Under the pieces are notes generated by a model. It made no database searches. It had not been told where the DNA came from and worked only from the letters and a program-made list of their open reading frames with translations. DNA of 11,802 bases from a virus, in UHGV virus genome UHGV-0166849, one strand, 5' to 3'. The stretch's first letter is position 1. Each line of letters starts with the position of its first letter. The position numbers were made by a program, and so were the translations under genes. Positions 1 through 11,802 of this stretch are shown piece by piece.

Positions 1-49
1 ACTTACTTCTTTATGTGATCAGTTCATATTTTTGACGCCAACGAAACAT

Positions 50-2995
50 TTAGTGCTTCCCTTCTATTAAGTCTAACCTAGCTTTTATCTTATCCATTTC
101 TCTGCGCTGCCATGCTGCCTCGATATAGAATAAGAGATCAGGTCTGACCCCCCATCTAGATCCTGCTGGCGTTATTTCAACGCGCTCAATGATGTCTTCT
201 ATTACCATCACTGGATTATCATCCTCATCAACAATGATGCTCCCGTCATTATCAGTCAGCGGCATTTCCCTTTGGCCAGTAATGACGTCATCATATACTG
301 CGGGATAATCGTCATAGCAAAGAAAGGCATAGCGGCATGTTGTGCTTTCTTCTTCCATGAGTCCGTGAGAAATAAGAACATCACGAAGTTGCTGCGCGAT
401 TACACCATGATGTATCCTCGCCCCTTCTTCCCCCTTTATAGCGACAGCGTTCAGCCATTTATAAGCGATATACCTGACGTCACCCCAGGCATCCAGCAAT
501 GCTTCGTCAGGAGAGACCGGCTCTGTCTTTAATGTTCCGTCACTGGTAACCACAGGATTGGAGCCAAGATAAACTATCGAGAACCTGTTTCCCGGACCAC
601 CAAGAGCATTTACATTATCAAGATAAGGTTTAACATCTCCGTTCTCAAAAAGATGTTCGAGTGCGTTATATACCGCGCGACGTGGAGTACTGCTTCTGGA
701 ACCATGCAACGTTATCATTGCACCATCTGCTGAAGACGTTGTTTCACCGCCGCTAACGATTAATCTCTGAGCGGTAACATCATCAGACGGTACTTTCTTC
801 GCAATAATGGCGTAATTACCCTCAAGTTTGACTTCCGCGCGAACTTGTCCTGATGTACCTGCATGGACAGTCAGTGACTGGACGGCAACATCATCTGTGA
901 AATCAACGGGTACAGGAACCGTCCTCACGCCTGACGTCGACATAAAAGTAGGAAGCGTTCTGTTAGGAGTGGCTCCGTAGACAAAATCCCTTGAAACAAA
1001 TTCTTCCTGTTTAATTTTCACCCTGAAACAATACAAATCAGCCGGGTGACCATCGTGAACATAAGGATATTTTCTGTTGTTATCCCCTATGCTCCATGGG
1101 TTTAGAAAATCTTCCCCACCGAAAATGTAGTACAGCCAGTTGTCTTTGATACAAACTGAACCAACACCAACCGCAGAGTTAACTATTCCGCCCTGATAAA
1201 TCTGATCAGTAACATTAACCCACTCTACATTATCCAGACTCCACTCATTGACGTTAACTCTGGTCATAAATGTTCTTGGATAATTTCCTGCATAACGGTT
1301 ATCAGGTTCTCCTCCTTCCCACTCACCAAATGCGCGCTCACTGCCAAAAATAACCAGCTCATCGCCAACTTTGGCAAAAGGAAGGTTTGAGTGATGAACA
1401 TTATTTGGGAAGCGAAGAGAATTCCATGATGTACCTAAATCAGAGCTTCTGTGCAATGAACTACCGGGTTGAGTACTTAATGTCCCCCTGGTCGTCAGAT
1501 ACAGAATGCCATCATAATATTTTACACATGGCTCAGATGCATTCGCCTCATATTCTGCAGGTATGCGTCTGCGAACAAAGCTACCAGGAGAACCGAAAGC
1601 ATCAGAGAAATAGAGTATCCCAAGCTCGCGTGGACCAATATCACCATTATGGTAGCCAACAGCAAAACTGTTATCGCTAATCGTCGCAAAACTGTGAATC
1701 TCAGTAACAGGAGTGCTTCCGTCAACAAAAGAAGGAATAGTTCCAAGACTGGTTTTTCTCCATGGTGACGAGTGAAATGATGTGCCAAAACTCCAGTATC
1801 TACCCTCGTTATTCTGATCCACATCCTGGGTATTTTGCGTCGTAACTGTAAAGGTATTTTTATCAATAACAGTAGTCACCGTCATATTCCCGGTAACATC
1901 TGTAACACCAGAGTTTGAGAAGTTGACAAAATCACCAGCAAATAATCCGTGATCAGTAATGCGAATATAAGCGACTTGCTGATTTGCTGCTTTCGTTATA
2001 CCACCATAAACGCGAAGGCTGCGACTCATTGGGCGATCCCACAACTCTGCAACCTGCAGTTTATTTCCTCTCACGGTCCGCGTCTCAATTACAGCAAAAA
2101 GGCGATTTCTGACAACCCCCATACTCATGCAGTGATAGTTAACTGTGGGATAGTTTTCATGTAAATCTGTAAGCCATTCCGGCGTTGTCCAGGTCTTCCC
2201 GTCATCTCCTGAGCGAACCCATGCAACATGGAGGTTATTTACACCATGGCGGTCTCCAGCCATAAAAGGCGCATAGATGACATTGTCATATACAAACGTT
2301 TTATCCTGCGTCCAGGCGTTGTACCACGGTGTATCTGTAATTTTAAATAACTCTCCCTGGATAAAATCTTCAGAAGCATAAAAAAGAGGCTGACCCGGTA
2401 TTCTCTCAAATAAAAAACGAGCATTTTTAAATCGACTGACATCTGGAAGAGTTGATACTTTAAAAGTAAGCCCTCGCCCATCTATCTTTTCACCACCTGT
2501 TGCAACAGAAAGTAATTCTGATAGAGCTGATGTATCATCATGAACACCATCACCAATAGCCCCCCAACCTCTTACATCATAACTGTCTCTCCATCTTGCT
2601 ATCTGAAGTTTTGGGTATTTATTCGCTCCATCTGGGTCTTCTAATTGCCGCCGTAACTGATCAGGATCATACTTCAGCACATTAGGAAAATAAAACTGCT
2701 GTGAACCATATGCATCGTACACAGCCATAGAGTGACCTTGCACAGTTACGAACTTGGCAATCTGTCCGTTATATACCGGATATCCAGCAGCGTTAATGAT
2801 GATTGGTTGCGAAACAGGAACGTGAGAGCCGTCTTCGTTCTCCACATAAGCCTGAATCTGGTTTTCAGGATTTACCGGGTCAGTGTCAATTTTACCGATA
2901 TAAATTTTGCCATTGGCTACAGCTTTAAAAGAACGCGCCATAGTGAAGAGTTGCGAAGGCATGCTGACCACAACATTTGCGGTGATATCTGTCAT
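50..2995 (-). CDS. Tailspike protein (981 aa): P22 gp9-type head-binding N-domain + sialidase-like domain with Asp-boxes + C-terminal intramolecular chaperone-like domain; probable endo-N-acetylneuraminidase (endosialidase)
   Basis: Full-length ORF in track. N-terminus [11 protein letters not shown]...[22 protein letters not shown]...ENEDGSHV...NVLKYDPDQ closely matches my memory of the P22 tailspike head-binding domain. Two Asp-box motifs are read directly: SGDDGKTW (aa 262-269, nt ~2189-2212) and SSDLGTSW (aa 517-524, nt ~1424-1447). The C-terminal ~160 aa (motifs [25 protein letters not shown]) resemble endosialidase/tail-fibre C-terminal chaperone domains. SD GGAG lies 8 nt upstream of the ATG at 2995. 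Confidence 0.85.
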
Positions 2996-3051
2996 TTAAT
3001 TTGCTCCAGATACAAGGAATCGCCGCAGCGTGGCTACGGTGAATTTTGGGC

Positions 3052-3079
3052 ATAAAAAAACCCAGCCGAAGCTGGGTCG
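3052..3079 (-). terminator. Rho-independent terminator between ant and the tailspike gene (t_ant-like)
   Basis: On the + strand: A7 run (3054-3060), then a 7-bp stem ACCCAGC/GCTGGGT with loop CGAA (3060-3077). Read on the minus strand this is a hairpin followed by a U7 run, 19 nt downstream of the ant stop. Confidence 0.6.
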
Positions 3080-3095
3080 TTGCGTTGTTTATCTG

Positions 3096-4019
3096 TCAGT
3101 AGTTATGTACTGAAGGAGGTAATTCTTTGTTCTTAAGTCTTATCCATGCTGAAAGGTTTGTTGGTCCGTCTGGCTCATTAATATCAACATCTCGTGTATG
3201 GTTGATTAAAACATCTCTCGCCATTCCGATAACATACGAGAACTCATAACCGCAGTCATGACATCTGCCGGAATAGTTCGATTGAATTTGTTTCAGCGCC
3301 GGATACAGTTCGCGGAATAATGCCTGTGAGCGGTTGGCATAATCCCATAGCCATACAAGGCTGTTTGCTTCTTTTGCAGAAAGCTCGTTGGTTTTCTTCT
3401 CTTGTTTGCCAATGAACTCACCTTCAAGTGGAACTCGAGCTGCAAGTGATAGTGCTTCGGTAAACTGCTCCTCACTGATTTCTTTGTACGAACATCCAAA
3501 ATGGGATTTCAGTGACGACCACATGGTGATCATCGCCTTAGCCCGTTTTTCTTTTGGCAGAGACTGACCGCGACTCATGACGAGTTGTTTAATGGCTTCC
3601 TGCTGTTCAGTGGTGATTTTACCCGGCAACGCCTTTTTAGCTTTGCGTGGGTTAACTACATAGCCTTTAGTCCAGTACTCGTAGAGCACATCGTCACACT
3701 CTTCCTGATACTGGATTACCTTGTCGCGGATTTCAGGGCGGACTTTGTTTGGCTGAATGCTTGAAAGCCAAGCCGCAAACTTACGAAAGGCAAGGCATAT
3801 CATTAACTGTTTACCGCCAGCAGAAGGTATTTCGATTTCCGAAATACCTTTGACAAATCTCTGTTTTAATTTAACAAATTGAGCAGCCCAAACCATACCC
3901 ATGCCTTCTACAACGGGTTTCATAGGAACGTAAGGTTCATTGTTAATGCTGACCAAAAAGAGATTTGTTCCGTGGAATGGAACGTTGATTGTATGTTCTG
4001 CAATTGCTACACTCGTCAT
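3096..4019 (-). CDS. ant: Antirepressor Ant (307 aa), AntA/Bro-N-like N-terminal domain
   Basis: ORF in track. Sits downstream of arc and upstream of the tailspike, as in P22 immI. N-terminal region (..VPFHGTNLFLV...PMKPVVEGMGMVWAAQ..KL) looks like phage antirepressor N-domains. SD AGGA ~8 nt upstream of the ATG at 4019. Confidence 0.75.
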   Translation of the reverse strand: MTSVAIAEHTINVPFHGTNLFLVSINNEPYVPMKPVVEGMGMVWAAQFVKLKQRFVKGISEIEIPSAGGKQLMICLAFRKFAAWLSSIQPNKVRPEIRDKVIQYQEECDDVLYEYWTKGYVVNPRKAKKALPGKITTEQQEAIKQLVMSRGQSLPKEKRAKAMITMWSSLKSHFGCSYKEISEEQFTEALSLAARVPLEGEFIGKQEKKTNELSAKEANSLVWLWDYANRSQALFRELYPALKQIQSNYSGRCHDCGYEFSYVIGMARDVLINHTRDVDINEPDGPTNLSAWIRLKNKELPPSVHNY

Positions 4020-4090
4020 GTCGTTAATTCCTATGCGTGGTTTTACGATACCGAAGCCCTGACTGTTCCCGCAGTTGGGGCTTCACTGTT
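4020..4090 (+). ncRNA. Candidate sar-like antisense RNA (~70 nt) complementary to the ant RBS and start region
   Basis: Plus-strand promoter-like hexamers inside the 5' end of ant: TTGATT (3985-3990), 17-bp spacer, TACACT (4008-4013), placing a start near 4020. Downstream is an imperfect hairpin GAAGCCC...GGGCTTC (about 4051-4081) followed by TTTTT (4085-4089). This matches the known P22 arrangement of sar RNA opposite the ant RBS. Prediction from sequence only. Confidence 0.3.
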
Positions 4091-4304
4091 TTTGTAAGTC
4101 ACTGTAGCTATAAAGCCACTGACCACTCATTTTTGATTTGATTGACTCTACTGAATCACGGCAAGGAATGATTCCACCTGACATCATTCTGATCTCCGTA
4201 AATTCACCACTCCTTATCGATTCAATGCCATCAATGTTAACTAAAGATTTACCTCTACCAAGTGCATTCTCATAGCCAATCTCATCAACCTCAATAAACT
4301 TCAT
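4083..4304 (-). CDS. Hypothetical protein (73 aa) located between arc and ant
   Basis: ORF in track. Its ATG overlaps the arc stop codon (ATGA at 4301-4304, minus strand), which suggests translational coupling. SD-like GAGGGGA upstream. No recognisable motif. As I recall P22 immI, there is no gene between arc and ant. Confidence 0.45.
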   Translation of the reverse strand: MKFIEVDEIGYENALGRGKSLVNIDGIESIRSGEFTEIRMMSGGIIPCRDSVESIKSKMSGQWLYSYSDLQKQ

Positions 4305-4459
4305 ACCGTTATCCCCTCTCTCTTCAGGCTGTCCAACACTCGCTTGTAAATCTCAGAGTTAACAGATCGCCCGTTCTCTTCAGCTACCTTGCGCACCAAA
4401 TCCAATACTTCTTTAGGCCACCGCAAATTGAACTGCGGCATTTTTCTTGCACCTTGCAT
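4301..4459 (-). CDS. arc: Arc transcriptional repressor (52 aa, ribbon-helix-helix)
   Basis: Not in the ORF track (below its size cutoff). Manual translation of the minus strand gives MQGARKMPQFNLRWPKEVLDLVRKVAEENGRSVNSEIYKRVLDSLKREGITV, near-identical in its first 40 residues to P22 Arc as I recall it (MKGMSKMPQFNLRWPREVLDLVRKVAEENGRSVNSEIYQRV...). SD AGGGGA upstream of the ATG at 4459. Confidence 0.85.
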   Translation of the reverse strand: MQGARKMPQFNLRWPKEVLDLVRKVAEENGRSVNSEIYKRVLDSLKREGITV

Positions 4460-4481
4460 GTCATCCCCTTTGTGGTATTAC

Positions 4482-4508
4482 CGTACTACTATTGAAAGCG
4501 TACTACTA
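4482..4508. repeat. Two copies of a 10-bp direct repeat CGTACTACTA (4482-4491 and 4499-4508) flanking TTGAAAG; candidate operator for Arc and/or Mnt
   Basis: Read directly from the sequence. The repeats overlap the predicted P_ant -10 and transcription start region and flank the P_mnt -35. The TAGTAG core on the opposite strand is reminiscent of the P22 arc operator half-sites. Confidence 0.4.
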
Positions 4509-4520
4509 CCGTCCTAGCAT
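4492..4520 (+). promoter_or_regulatory. Candidate P_mnt promoter, overlapping back-to-back with P_ant
   Basis: On the plus strand: -35 TTGAAA (4492-4497), 17-bp spacer, -10 TAGCAT (4515-4520). Followed by SD AAGGAG (4533-4538) and the GTG start of mnt at 4545. Confidence 0.4.
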
Positions 4521-4525
4521 GTCAA
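4497..4525 (-). promoter_or_regulatory. Candidate P_ant promoter (drives arc, orf73, ant)
   Basis: On the minus strand: perfect -35 TTGACA (4525-4520), 17-bp spacer, weak -10 TACGCT (4502-4497). Lies in the divergent arc/mnt intergenic region, as in P22. Confidence 0.45.
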
Positions 4526-4544
4526 CAAATAAAAGGAGAATGAC

Positions 4545-4787
4545 GTGGCTAGAAATGATCCGCAATTCAACGTAAGAATGCCAGATGAGATAAAACAGCA
4601 ACTTACGCATATTGCTGCAACAAATCGTCGCTCTATCAATGCTGAAATTATTGCCGCTATCCAATTGTGGATAAAGATACATAAAGAGCAGGTAATACCT
4701 TCAAGTAGTCAGCAACTGACCAAGTCAGAGAAAGAGGCTCTTGATGTGACTATTGATGTTCTACAACGTGTAAGGGATGGGAAATGA
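4545..4787 (+). CDS. mnt: Mnt repressor (80 aa, ribbon-helix-helix, Arc/Mnt family)
   Basis: ORF in track with GTG start. N-terminus MARNDPQFNVRMP...RRSINAEI matches P22 Mnt as I recall it (MARDDPHFNFRMP...GRSMNSEL). Divergent from arc, with a strong SD AAGGAG 6 nt upstream. Confidence 0.85.
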   Translation: MARNDPQFNVRMPDEIKQQLTHIAATNRRSINAEIIAAIQLWIKIHKEQVIPSSSQQLTKSEKEALDVTIDVLQRVRDGK

Positions 4788-8418: not shown

Positions 8419-9890
8419 TCCACCGTAAATTGAATGCCTGATTTTGAGGTATATGATCCGGATTGACTCTGCTGCTGTTGGGTATTTGTCGGTTGTTGGC
8501 TATTGCTCTGTTGTTGACTATTTGCAGCACTTGAAACCACCAAAGCATCATAAACGCGACCAGACTGACCACGTAATGAGTTATATTGGCCCTGCATTTT
8601 TCGCATTTTTGTTTCAGTAGCAGCCTTGGAATCACCGGGCTGAGGGAGGTACATTTTGGAATACTCCTGCATCTCTGGCAGAGTAATTGCTGCACCTGTT
8701 TCTGGGCGCAAAATTGCATACAAGGCGTCTCTCGCATTTACCATATATTGCTGCTCCGCTGGTGATAGGCTTAAATTTGCAATAGTTCCATCACCAAGAG
8801 AGCGATTTATTAATGCAACTCGCTTAGGGTCAATGCTTTTACTAAGCTGATTCATTGAGTCCATTGAATCTTTTAATCGCAAAGCAAATCCCGCCGCCTT
8901 CTTGGAACCCTCATTAGCCTTATCTATGATGCTTTGCGCTTGTGGCAAGCTAATTGGTTTAATGCCATCACCAGATATAGGTTGGTTTAGTTTTCCGGCT
9001 TCCTCGCTGCCATCGGTGTAATACTTAGTTACCGAGCCATCAGGATTGGTTTCAACCTTAAGTAATTTCTTAGCATTGGGATTAATTCCCGCCGCTGCCG
9101 CAAATGCCGCTGCACCATCTGGATCTACCTTTAACATTTGCGCGTACTGATTGTAATTCTGCATTGCGGCTGTTGGTGCATATGCTGACGTTAACGCATT
9201 TGCTCGGCTAATATCCTGCCCTCTCGCCTGAAGTGCTTCACCAGCCTGATTGCTGCGGATTGTCTCTGCCAGTCTGCCTCGGTCAATTTCACGACCAGCC
9301 ATCTTGTCCTGAACAGCAAACGCCTTTTCTGGTCCAAGCGCACCGAGAGACATAGTAGTCAGCATGTGTGATAGCTGCTCTGGATTCTGGATACCTGTCT
9401 GAATCATCCAGTCAGCATTCGCCCCCACGCGATTTAACCTGTCCTTGTTGTCAGTAATGAATTTACTGTAGGCTTCCGGTCCCTGAGAAAGAGCGACGTT
9501 AGCTCTCATGGCTAAATCGCCCATATCGTTGCGTTGCTGATCATTAAGACCTGAAAACGCCTGTTGTGCCTGTGCAACAAACGCTGGATTTTCCTGGGCA
9601 AACTTAAATAGTCCCGATGGATCACCAGAAGCCCATGCATCAGCATGAACCTTATTGAACGCACTAATCGCTTTCTGTTGCTGTTCCTGATTGTAAATAT
9701 CAGCAACTCCAGCCAGACCACGTAACGCGGTCAGACCAACGTTATTTGTACCTGAGCGAGCCAGTTCATTGTTTTCGCGGATCAGACCAAGCGTTGCGTT
9801 AATGTCGCTTGCCTTTGGCGCATTCTCATTTTGCGTACCGATGCCAGCCAGAAAACCACCAGAATTAATACCCTGTTGCCAATTAGCCAT
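8415..9890 (-). CDS. Ejection protein, P22 gp20-like (491 aa)
   Basis: ORF in track. Position between the gp7-like and gp16-like genes. Gln/Ala/Gly-rich. Size close to P22 gp20 (about 471 aa as I recall). Confidence 0.8.
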
Positions 9891-9900
9891 TGATTACCCC

Positions 9901-10593
9901 TTAAAACAGCGAACCAAGCAGACCAAGACCAGCACCGATACCAGCACCCCACGGAGTTGATAGCTCGAGAGCACTGGCTATACCACCACCCAAAAGCGCA
10001 CCGGATGCAGCACCACTAACACCCTGCCGCAATGCTGACGGTCGGTTGGCGTTTGCCGCCGCCAGCGCCGCGCTTTGCTGTGAAATCTGACTCATGTTGT
10101 TGGCATATGTTTGCCCGGCGTTTGCCTGCCCCTGAAGAGCGCCAAGACCGATATTTGCCAGGTTGTTGTAATTGTTCATTTGTCCAGACAGCCATTGCTG
10201 ACCAAGCGTTGGTGCGATTGTTGCTAACTGATTACTGGTTGCGGTGGAACCCAATCCACCTGTTGCTTCCGCTGCCGCCAGACTCTGATAGCGAGCCTGA
10301 CCAGCAAGATCTTTGTACTGCTGAGAGTTGTAATACTGGTTAAGTGCCTGACCTTGCCCTTCCAGAGACGATAAGTTCTCAAGGCTGCCGACATACTTCC
10401 CAGCCAGAGGAGTAAACGGCTTCAGGTTGTTCATGATGGTGTTGAACTGCTGATTTTGCAGGTCTGCGGCATACTTCTGAGCTTCTGCGGCATACTTTGC
10501 ACTTTTATCAGAACTGCCACCTTTCCCGCCTTTTTCAGGGCAATAAGGTTCCTCGCCGCGCAGTTTTCTGCCCAGCTTAAATGCATATAACAT
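9901..10593 (-). CDS. Ejection protein, P22 gp7-like (230 aa)
   Basis: ORF in track. Size matches P22 gp7 (about 229 aa). N-terminus MLYAF.LGRKLRGEEP and a Gly/Ala-rich hydrophobic C-terminus. Separated by 2 nt from the upstream gp14-like stop. Confidence 0.8.
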   Translation of the reverse strand: MLYAFKLGRKLRGEEPYCPEKGGKGGSSDKSAKYAAEAQKYAADLQNQQFNTIMNNLKPFTPLAGKYVGSLENLSSLEGQGQALNQYYNSQQYKDLAGQARYQSLAAAEATGGLGSTATSNQLATIAPTLGQQWLSGQMNNYNNLANIGLGALQGQANAGQTYANNMSQISQQSAALAAANANRPSALRQGVSGAASGALLGGGIASALELSTPWGAGIGAGLGLLGSLF

Positions 10594-10595
10594 GG

Positions 10596-11051
10596 CTATC
10601 TCCCGTGATTCAGGAAGTCGATTAGTTCTTCGCGTGTGGCGCTGTAAAACGTCACGTCATCCACGCCTTTGAAGTATTTTTTGATGGTTCCTACACGATT
10701 AAGGCCAATCATTGCGCAGTACATCTGACCGTGGCGGAATTTGCGTGCAGCGAACGATGTGACGCACTGAACGGTGGTGTTAGTCAGAATGTATCGCCAG
10801 AACGCCAGCCCGATTTCCTTGCTGAATCCGCGAACCTCTGGCAGGTACATGGCGTGGCAATCGAATGTAAGCGGCTGAATCTCCTGGTAGTAAACAATGC
10901 CGCCAAACTGACCGTGCACGTTAACCTCAAAGTAACGGCATTCAGGCTTGTAGTCGTATCCATCACCGTTGTTGCTTCCAGCAATAATGTCAGGGTGATT
11001 TCCTACTGCTTCTATCAGGTCGATGTTTCGCGTTGGTTTGAATGTAATCAT
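10596..11051 (-). CDS. P22 gp14-like protein (151 aa), assigned by position
   Basis: ORF in track. Lies between the tail needle and gp7-like genes, as gene 14 does in P22. Its ATG overlaps the tail needle stop (ATGA at 11049-11053). Assignment is by synteny only. Confidence 0.6.
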   Translation of the reverse strand: MITFKPTRNIDLIEAVGNHPDIIAGSNNGDGYDYKPECRYFEVNVHGQFGGIVYYQEIQPLTFDCHAMYLPEVRGFSKEIGLAFWRYILTNTTVQCVTSFAARKFRHGQMYCAMIGLNRVGTIKKYFKGVDDVTFYSATREELIDFLNHGR

Positions 11052-11752
11052 CAGTCAATCAGCCCATGTAATCTAAGTGCTGTTTCAAGCGCCAGAATAC
11101 GCTGCCGCGCCTGCTGCAAACCTGTAGCGAGAGCTGCGACTTCGGATTGTGTGTACGTAGTGCCGACAGTGTATGACTGGTTAGCGTTGAATGAGCCAAG
11201 AAGTGGCGTACCTGTGGCTGCAGTCCATCCGGTATTTCTTGCTCCAACAACCTGAATTCCATCAACTGAATATGATGTTTTTACATCCAGCGGTGACGCA
11301 AGAGACTGCAATTCGGTTACGGTTTTCGATACGTAATCACTCTTAATGCCAGAGACATCGTTTTCTACGTCATCCAGTCTTTGGTCAACAGTGACCAGAT
11401 GCGCCTGAATATCGATAACCTCATCCAGCAAGTAATCAACATCGCTACGCAGTACGACTATCTTCCCTTCGGCAGTTGTTAACCTGACCTCAAGTAGATT
11501 TATCGCTTTTGTGTTTGCGGTGATTCTTGCGTCGTGATCAGCCAGTTCGACATCCTGTTCATCGTTTTTCACCTGTGCATCGTAAGCGCCCTGACCAGCC
11601 TGATTTGCCTTCCCGGCAATTGCGCCGACATCAGCCCCCTGATTAATGACATACAACAGGTAAGACTGGCTGAAGATATTGCGTGGAAGGATTGATGTAT
11701 CGAGCCGCGTCGCCTGCACAATAACAGGAGTGTTGAGATTCGAATCCGCCAT
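11051..11752 (-). CDS. Tail needle protein, P22 gp26-like (233 aa)
   Basis: ORF in track. N-terminus [73 protein letters not shown] closely matches my memory of P22 gp26. Identical length, heptad-rich middle, correct position. Confidence 0.85.
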
Positions 11753-11755
11753 TAC

Positions 11756-11802
11756 TCAATCCTTATCTGAGCGCCAGAAAGAGTTACAGGTGACTTCGTG
11801 AT
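11756..11802 (-). CDS. 3' end of the upstream late gene (gp10-like), partial; continues beyond the window
   Basis: Minus-strand open frame ending ...HEVTCNSFWRSDKD with TGA at 11756-11758, 3 nt before the tail needle ATG. Assigned by P22 gene order (10-26-14-7-20-16). Too short to confirm. Confidence 0.35.
   Translation of the reverse strand, partial: HEVTCNSFWRSDKD

Follow-up and report, generated by a model that had tools for sequence, protein, structure and literature searches.

The control region between arc and a divergent mnt-like gene in this DNA is in all likelihood a P22-type immI switch of a second specificity class, in which the two 10-bp direct repeats would represent H2 and H3, the inner half-sites of neighbouring homologues of the Mnt and Arc operators (Omnt and Oarc). 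Members of this 'Emek-type' immI class include phages Emek, N7 and HZ41 together with many prophages. The class is a new specificity variant of a known P22-type system, with one new feature, namely that the cores of Omnt and Oarc are alike. No description of Emek-type operators was found in the literature searched.

The window, by which we mean the whole 11,802-nucleotide stretch of DNA analysed, is a P22-like (Lederbergvirus) late-operon segment that is reversed relative to the P22 map, with the injection-protein genes lying further right than the mnt-like gene. Its immI gene set comprises arc, ant, sar and the divergent mnt-like gene, arranged in the order found in P22 immI. The features of the window as far as the mnt-like gene are as follows.

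50-2995, minus strand: tailspike, an endosialidase with a P22 head-binding domain
3096-4019, minus strand: ant, the antirepressor and the output regulated by Pant (Pfam P22_AR_N and P22_AR_C)
4021-4087, plus strand: sar antisense RNA (Rfam RF00262, 76.6 bits, E=1.5e-15)
4083-4304, minus strand: orf73
4301-4459, minus strand: arc, encoding the 52-aa Arc repressor (Pfam PF03869, PDB 1arq, alignment with P22 Arc)
between the divergent genes: arc-mnt intergenic region, 85 bp
4545-4787, plus strand: mnt-like gene, 80 aa, GTG start (PF03869, PDB 1mnt)

With sar identified, between orf73 and ant, the antirepressor control set of the P22 type is complete. The additional gene, orf73, separates arc from sar/ant and shares an ATGA with the stop codon of arc. 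No match in Pfam was found for orf73; it is also found in Emek (as orf73) and is absent from P22. The tailspike combines the P22 head-binding domain with a K1 endosialidase and a C-terminal chaperone domain, as in CUS-3.

Comparison with other genomes indicated a mosaic origin for the window. Positions 1-4085 and 9292-11802 share 96% identity with CUS-3, a phage of E. coli K1, whereas the part from 4086 to about 9291, including the immI control module, is an Emek-like replacement; the joints with the CUS-3-like flanks lie near 4086 and 9292. For the immI part, the nearest sequence is that of Salmonella phage Emek (90.7%), followed by the E. coli phages N7 and HZ41 (83.6%). A search of E. coli complete genomes detected the module in prophages, with 16 genomes covering at least 80% of the query at a best identity of 90.9% and no exact match to the window among the genomes searched. 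Scanning genome contigs with the Mnt-like protein produced only two distant matches (a Saccharospirillaceae bacterium and Acinetobacter), and a metagenome scan with an architecture pattern returned 7 loci and no new variants. CUS-3 itself (L122) and SEN22 (L121, about 395-440) have a third kind of control region, in which an Arc-like gene (MKVKTLRMPE...) is divergent from a Mnt-like gene (MSDRKYKNPQVNLRLP). The CUS-3 version contains a 9-bp direct repeat, GGTACGCAT, at 4443-4451 and 4464-4472 (21 bp apart), and the intergenic sequence of SEN22 is near-identical with the second repeat copy one base off (GGTACGTAT). The arc-like gene of CUS-3 is unannotated, and the region is labelled 'boundary sequence'.

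Within the intergenic region of the window, CGTACTACTA occurs in two exact copies that are 17 bp apart from start to start, just as the sequence-only reading of this DNA had recorded. Hexamers and operators were assigned by reference to the P22 immI record X01916 (Sauer et al. 1983), giving the following layout.

4472-4492, centre c4482: Omnt homologue, GTGGTATTAC-C-GTACTACTAT, aligned to P22 Omnt GGTCCAC-C-GTGGACC
4482-4491: repeat copy 1, made up of the C at the centre of the Omnt homologue and 9 bp from the inner half-site H2; about +1 to +9 of Pant
4492-4497, plus strand: predicted Pmnt -35, TTGAAA (aligned to the P22 X01916 hexamer; consensus scan)
4497-4502, minus strand: predicted Pant -10, TACGCT, 3/6 to consensus with a 17-bp spacer (aligned to P22 TATATT)
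4499-4508: repeat copy 2, made up of one spacer base and 9 bp from H3, which is the promoter-proximal half-site in the Oarc homologue; shares bases with the Pant -10 and with the spacer between -10 and -35
4500-4520, centre c4510: Oarc homologue, GTACTACTAC-C-GTCCTAGCAT, aligned to P22 Oarc ATAGTAGAGT-G-CTTCTATCAT
4515-4520, plus strand: predicted Pmnt -10, TAGCAT (aligned to the P22 X01916 hexamer; consensus scan)
4520-4525, minus strand: predicted Pant -35, TTGACA (aligned to the P22 X01916 hexamer; invariant in all loci)

Alignment with P22, which had been proposed as a check on the repeats, is gap-free from Omnt through the Pant -35 with all four annotated hexamers in register, and it places both sites in the P22 layout. 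The earlier proposal of overlapping, P22-like Pant and Pmnt promoters is supported by homology, since the hexamers match X01916 column for column. The predicted promoters overlap face-to-face, with the Pmnt -35 and Pant -10 sharing 1 bp, as in P22, and the Pmnt -10 abutting the Pant -35. A consensus scan detected the plus-strand promoter (9/12) and missed Pant because the -10 of the latter fits at only three of six positions. Transcription from Pant would start near 4490 on the minus strand and that from Pmnt near 4527 on the plus strand, and the repeats lie over the predicted -10 and start region of Pant as originally described.

The two 21-bp sites each consist of two 10-bp half-sites, and their centres are 28 bp apart, a spacing shared by P22 and all further types examined. 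The Omnt homologue consists of H1 (4472-4481) and H2 (4483-4492) on either side of the central C, with the core TATTAC-C-GTACTA at 4476-4488. This site is imperfect in the window, where 7/10 pairs of the 21-mer are symmetric and H1 has TATTAC rather than TAGTAC. The same position holds a perfect 13-bp palindrome in Emek (TAGTAC-C-GTACTA) and a perfect 19-bp palindrome, TGGTAGTAC-C-GTACTACCA, with 9/10 symmetric pairs, in the IMG/VR contig 3300011769_000077 (L112). In L112, copy 1 has C in place of T at position +8, and the matching base, a G at -8, is in H1; copy 2 has no matching change. The inverted partner of copy 1 is thus H1, which lies immediately to its left. The Oarc homologue, composed of H3 (4500-4509) and H4 (4511-4520), has 6/10 symmetric pairs, a count equal to that of P22 Oarc. 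Read from outer end to centre, H4 is ATGCTAGGAC in the window, ATGCTAGAAC in Emek and ATGATAGAAG in P22, so that identity to P22 is 7/10 for the window and 8/10 for Emek. H3 is without the TAGA box used by P22 Arc, although the residues of the Arc beta-strand are unchanged. When flipped, H3 shares TAGTAG (6/10) with P22 H3 as compared to 4/10 when unflipped; the flipped-copy and plain palindromic frames of H3 are indistinguishable because the half-site is nearly two-fold symmetric. A repeat-finding run, while not listing the 10-mer pair, returned a 13-nt family whose members at 4476-4488 and 4504-4516 are 28 bp apart and correspond to the two operator cores. The proposal that the direct repeats signify a different, non-palindromic geometry is therefore not supported by the alignment, as copy 1 and its inverted partner together make up a site where Omnt is located in P22, and copy 2 falls in a separate site at the Oarc position.

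The appearance of a direct repeat can be explained by the half-site itself. The sequence GTAnTAnTAC is nearly two-fold symmetric about its TA step, with H3 having 4/5 symmetric pairs in the window and forming a perfect 10-bp palindrome, GTAATATTAC, in L051/L114; such a near-symmetric half-site fits a symmetric ribbon-helix-helix dimer. As the half-site is near-palindromic, its orientation is nearly degenerate, and the inner halves of two inverted operators can read as a direct repeat. In both copies, bases six and seven of the 10-mer are the TA step at a distance of 5.5 bp from the centre of the operator, and by analogy with the Arc-operator complex the dimer axis would be expected to pass through this step. 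With a TA step at 5.5 bp from each centre, the 17-bp spacing of the repeats is accounted for as 28 - 5.5 - 5.5 (28 - 11), as in P22.

Both repressors belong to the Arc family of ribbon-helix-helix proteins (Pfam PF03869, curated cut-off 20.4 bits), with scores of 92.2 bits for the window Arc and 49.7 bits, over residues 2-40, for the Mnt-like protein. The window Arc is 79% identical to P22 Arc and matches the PDB Arc entry 1arq (E=1.5e-23). Its beta-strand, PQFNLRWP, is that of P22 Arc, and its arm is MQGARK (Q2, A4, R5) as compared to MKGMSK in P22. A recent PDB deposit, 9pio chain G (a 79-aa 'Arc family DNA-binding protein' that is part of a larger complex), also matches the window Arc (E=1.4e-22). 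The N-terminal ribbon-helix-helix domain of the Mnt-like protein has ARNDPQFNVRMP, with Gln6 where P22 Mnt has His6, and as a consequence the exposed strand triad (Gln, Asn, Arg) equals that of Arc. In place of the His6 and GGTCCAC-type operator of P22 Mnt we found Gln6 and a TAGTAC-type operator, and this protein is therefore named 'Mnt-like, second specificity class'. PDB 1mnt aligns with residues 2-41 only, and the C-terminal 40 residues are not alignable with the coiled-coil tetramerisation domain of P22 Mnt (~52-82). A single-sequence AlphaFold (AF2) model of low confidence (pLDDT 57.7) has a C-terminal helix at 60-78, which suggests that the C-terminal layout may be analogous to that of P22 Mnt. 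In one related locus, L096, the mnt-like gene has an ATG at the start position where the window has GTG.

In a comparison of about 110 loci, taken from IMG/VR, from GenBank phages and from metagenomes, operator type and repressor type were found to co-occur strictly, in the following combinations.

Arc arm xGARK (MQGARK, MIGARK, MKGARK): H3 GTACTAYYAC, or GTAATATTAC in L051/L114
Arc arm MKGMSK (KGMSK): H3 ATAGTAGAGT
Arc arm MKGASK: H3 ATAATACCAT
Mnt ...PQFNVRMP: TA(G/T)(T/C)AC-C-GT(A/G)CTA
Mnt ...PHFNFRMP: GGTCCAC-S-GTGGACC
Mnt ...PQFKLR(L/M)P: AACCAC-S-GTGGTT, with a variable G/A at the outer arm position

The most telling example is a natural mosaic. The Arc proteins of L112 and L115 (IMG/VR contig 3300013953_000020) are identical over residues 1-44 and their Mnt types differ; H3 is nearly unchanged between these loci (GTACTACTAC vs GTACTATCAC), whereas H2 is wholly different (GTACTACCAT vs GTGGTTCAAT). 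This indicates that copy 2 goes with Arc, and copy 1 with Mnt. The combination of the same Arc with a different Mnt and Omnt site also places a recombination joint inside the roughly 70-bp control region. The original suggestion that the repeats are a candidate operator stands in so far as they are very probably repressor-binding sequence, judging from these comparisons, but they would be halves of two operators and not one joint operator. Its corollary, a direct-repeat operator geometry, is not supported because natural variants alter one copy alone and the copies track different repressor genes.

A modified form of the two-operator reading, which we consider possible but doubtful, retains the P22-like architecture while dispensing with two orthogonal repressors, in that each repressor would also bind the near-alike operator of the other. 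The Mnt-like protein, for instance, would bind at H3+H4 as well and thereby repress its own promoter, or Arc would bind at H1+H2 as well. The 13-bp cores of Omnt and Oarc share 10-11/13 bases in every type II variant (11/13 in the window), as compared to 1-2/13 in P22, and this degree of likeness makes cross-recognition possible; one protein may occupy both operators. H2 of the window (GTACTACTAT) and H4 of L096 (GTTCTACTAT) differ by one base, and the identity of the exposed beta-strand triads of the two proteins points in the same direction. Against this, position +3 (A4485 in Omnt and C4513 in Oarc of the window) is a purine in all Omnt variants and a pyrimidine in all Oarc variants, being the sole consistent difference between the cores, while position -4 (T4478 in Omnt, C4506 in Oarc) differs in part. 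H1 and H3 are also unlike in their four outer bases. The Arc N-terminal arm, moreover, co-varies with H3 independently of Mnt. In a separate comparison, the first seven bases of the Mnt-like half-site ATAGTAGTAC (outer to centre) were found to be those of the P22 Arc half-site H3. A simple code in which Mnt Gln6-Asn8-Arg10 specifies an Arc-like TAG half-site proved insufficient, however, as the Mnt of ST64T (GRDDPQFNLRLP) has the triad beside AAGACCAC-G-GTGGTCTT; thus the triad alone does not set specificity, which also counts against cross-recognition. N-terminal residues are reportedly what decides which operator is read by Arc/Mnt hybrid repressors, in the work of Knight and Sauer in 1989 and of Raumann, Knight and Sauer in 1995, to which PMC3413123 and PMC3325190 refer. 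The N-terminal arm of Arc becomes ordered on DNA and contributes to binding (PMC3325190).

It is very improbable that the two direct repeats instead form a single head-to-tail operator, bound by Arc or Mnt in a manner unlike that of P22. The copies are identical at 10/10 positions and this identity is kept in most type II loci, and some ribbon-helix-helix proteins do bind direct repeats, as described for ArtA (PMC2777438) and for ParG chimeras (PMC3413123). Arc-type dimer-of-dimer sites are, however, inverted half-sites and have been contrasted with the direct repeats of ArtA (PMC2777438). The sites of ArtA on Porf538, of ParG and omega and the met-boxes of MetJ resemble the present repeats in being short repeated boxes that each receive one ribbon-helix-helix dimer (PMC2777438, PMC3413123), but their boxes are at most about one helical turn apart and serve one protein species, whereas here the boxes are 17 bp apart, in two operators, and track two proteins. 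A distance of 17 bp (~1.6 helical turns) would place the dimers on roughly opposite faces of the DNA, while in known dimer-of-dimer ribbon-helix-helix sites they are about one turn apart. The palindromic partner of copy 1 at the P22 Omnt position and the separate fates of the copies in L112 and L115 also argue against a joint site. Furthermore, the copies diverge independently within a constant frame of four half-sites, identity between them falling to 9/10 (L112, L005, L007), 8/10 (L096) and 7/10 (L051/L114), and no change inside a copy was common to both copies among the type II variants. By spacing, protein tracking and independent variation, the repeats differ from direct-repeat operators of the ArtA, ParG or omega type.

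Evidence for function comes from the position and conservation of the repeats rather than from the repeat alone. A first-order Markov simulation predicted 0.30 exact 10-mer pairs at distances of 10-30 bp in the 11.8-kb window, in which three loci were seen, and the repeat is by itself unremarkable at the scale of the window; shuffling of the 85-bp arc-mnt intergenic region gave such a pair in 191 of 200,000 trials. Elsewhere in the window, an exact 14-bp direct repeat, TCTGCGGCATACTT, is present at 10463-10476 and 10484-10497 (21 bp apart) inside a 230-aa ORF (9901-10593, minus strand), and a 10-bp repeat, GCAAAACTGT, at 1662-1671 and 1686-1695 (24 bp apart) inside the tailspike gene. Both copies of the intergenic repeat are identical at all ten positions in 36/46 tabulated type II loci (5/9 distinct operator configurations). 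A phylogenetic footprint of 14 distinct type II sequences demonstrated that 4483-4525 is nearly invariant and that the arc 5'UTR varies almost everywhere. The latter (about 4460-4473) is the most variable stretch of the module and has lost 8 bp in the window as compared to Emek and N7. The least probable explanation of all is that the repeat is a by-product without a binding role, arising for instance from local duplication or promoter constraint, because, even though such 10-mer pairs are not rare window-wide and the Pant -10 accounts for some of copy 2 (4499-4502), conservation outside the hexamers (4483-4491 and 4503-4514) equals that of the hexamers themselves beside a hypervariable 5'UTR, the sites are positionally homologous to experimentally defined P22 operators, and there is palindromic covariation in L112.

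For the preferred reading, a P22-type switch with two separate operators, the sequence suggests that H1+H2 would be the Mnt operator over the Pant start, and that H3+H4 would be the Arc operator, located between the -35 and -10 of Pant and over the -10 of Pmnt. By analogy with P22, binding of the Mnt-like protein to H1+H2 would block Pant in the lysogen and keep ant off, and the removal of RNA polymerase from the strong Pant would free the overlapping Pmnt. Arc made from Pant would bind H3+H4 as a cooperative dimer of dimers and turn both promoters off, and sar RNA would add antisense control of ant.

The module shares with P22 immI the gene order, the sar RNA, the beta-strand of Arc and face-to-face promoters in the same register. 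In both, the Pant start is covered by one operator and the stretch from the Pant -35 to the -10 by the other, the centres are 28 bp apart, and the operators are of 21 bp or 17 bp with a central C or G. The differences are in specificity: the Omnt core is TA(G/T)TAC-C-GTACTA here and GGTCCAC-C-GTGGACC in P22, and H3 of Oarc is GTACTACTAC here and ATAGTAGAGT in P22. In contrast to P22, Arc has the arm MQGARK, Gln6 and another C-terminal region are present in the Mnt-like protein, an extra gene (orf73) separates arc from sar, and the operator cores are alike (11/13, as opposed to 1-2/13). Engineered Arc/Mnt hybrids offer a second comparison, since the present module likewise has a Mnt paralogue with an Arc-like Gln-x-Asn-x-Arg strand beside an Arc-like half-site; unlike these hybrids it is a natural variant. 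As ST64T illustrates, the strand triad is not enough for a prediction.

The recognition of DNA by beta-sheets has its textbook models in Arc and Mnt of P22, which, to our knowledge, have been studied almost only with P22 operators and laboratory mutants. The Emek-type module represents a natural second class that differs in three ways, namely in the operator sequences, in Gln6 of Mnt and in the arm of an Arc whose beta-strand is unchanged. Together with the other types and the L112/L115 mosaic, this class is natural swap material for identifying the residues that set ribbon-helix-helix specificity, and it allows a test of whether paralogous repressors with near-identical sites stay insulated. 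For annotation, the 'direct repeat' belongs with the immI module as Omnt and Oarc half-sites and not with a new type of operator. If the two repressors had come to read nearly one and the same 10-bp half-site and cross-binding were to occur, the orthogonal two-repressor circuit of P22 would have become competitive or partly redundant in this class, the likely form being a Mnt-like protein that at high concentration also occupies Oarc and represses its own promoter. Under this condition there would also be a natural series of Arc/Mnt-operator combinations, with at least five specificity types, from which the recognition code of ribbon-helix-helix proteins would be readable.
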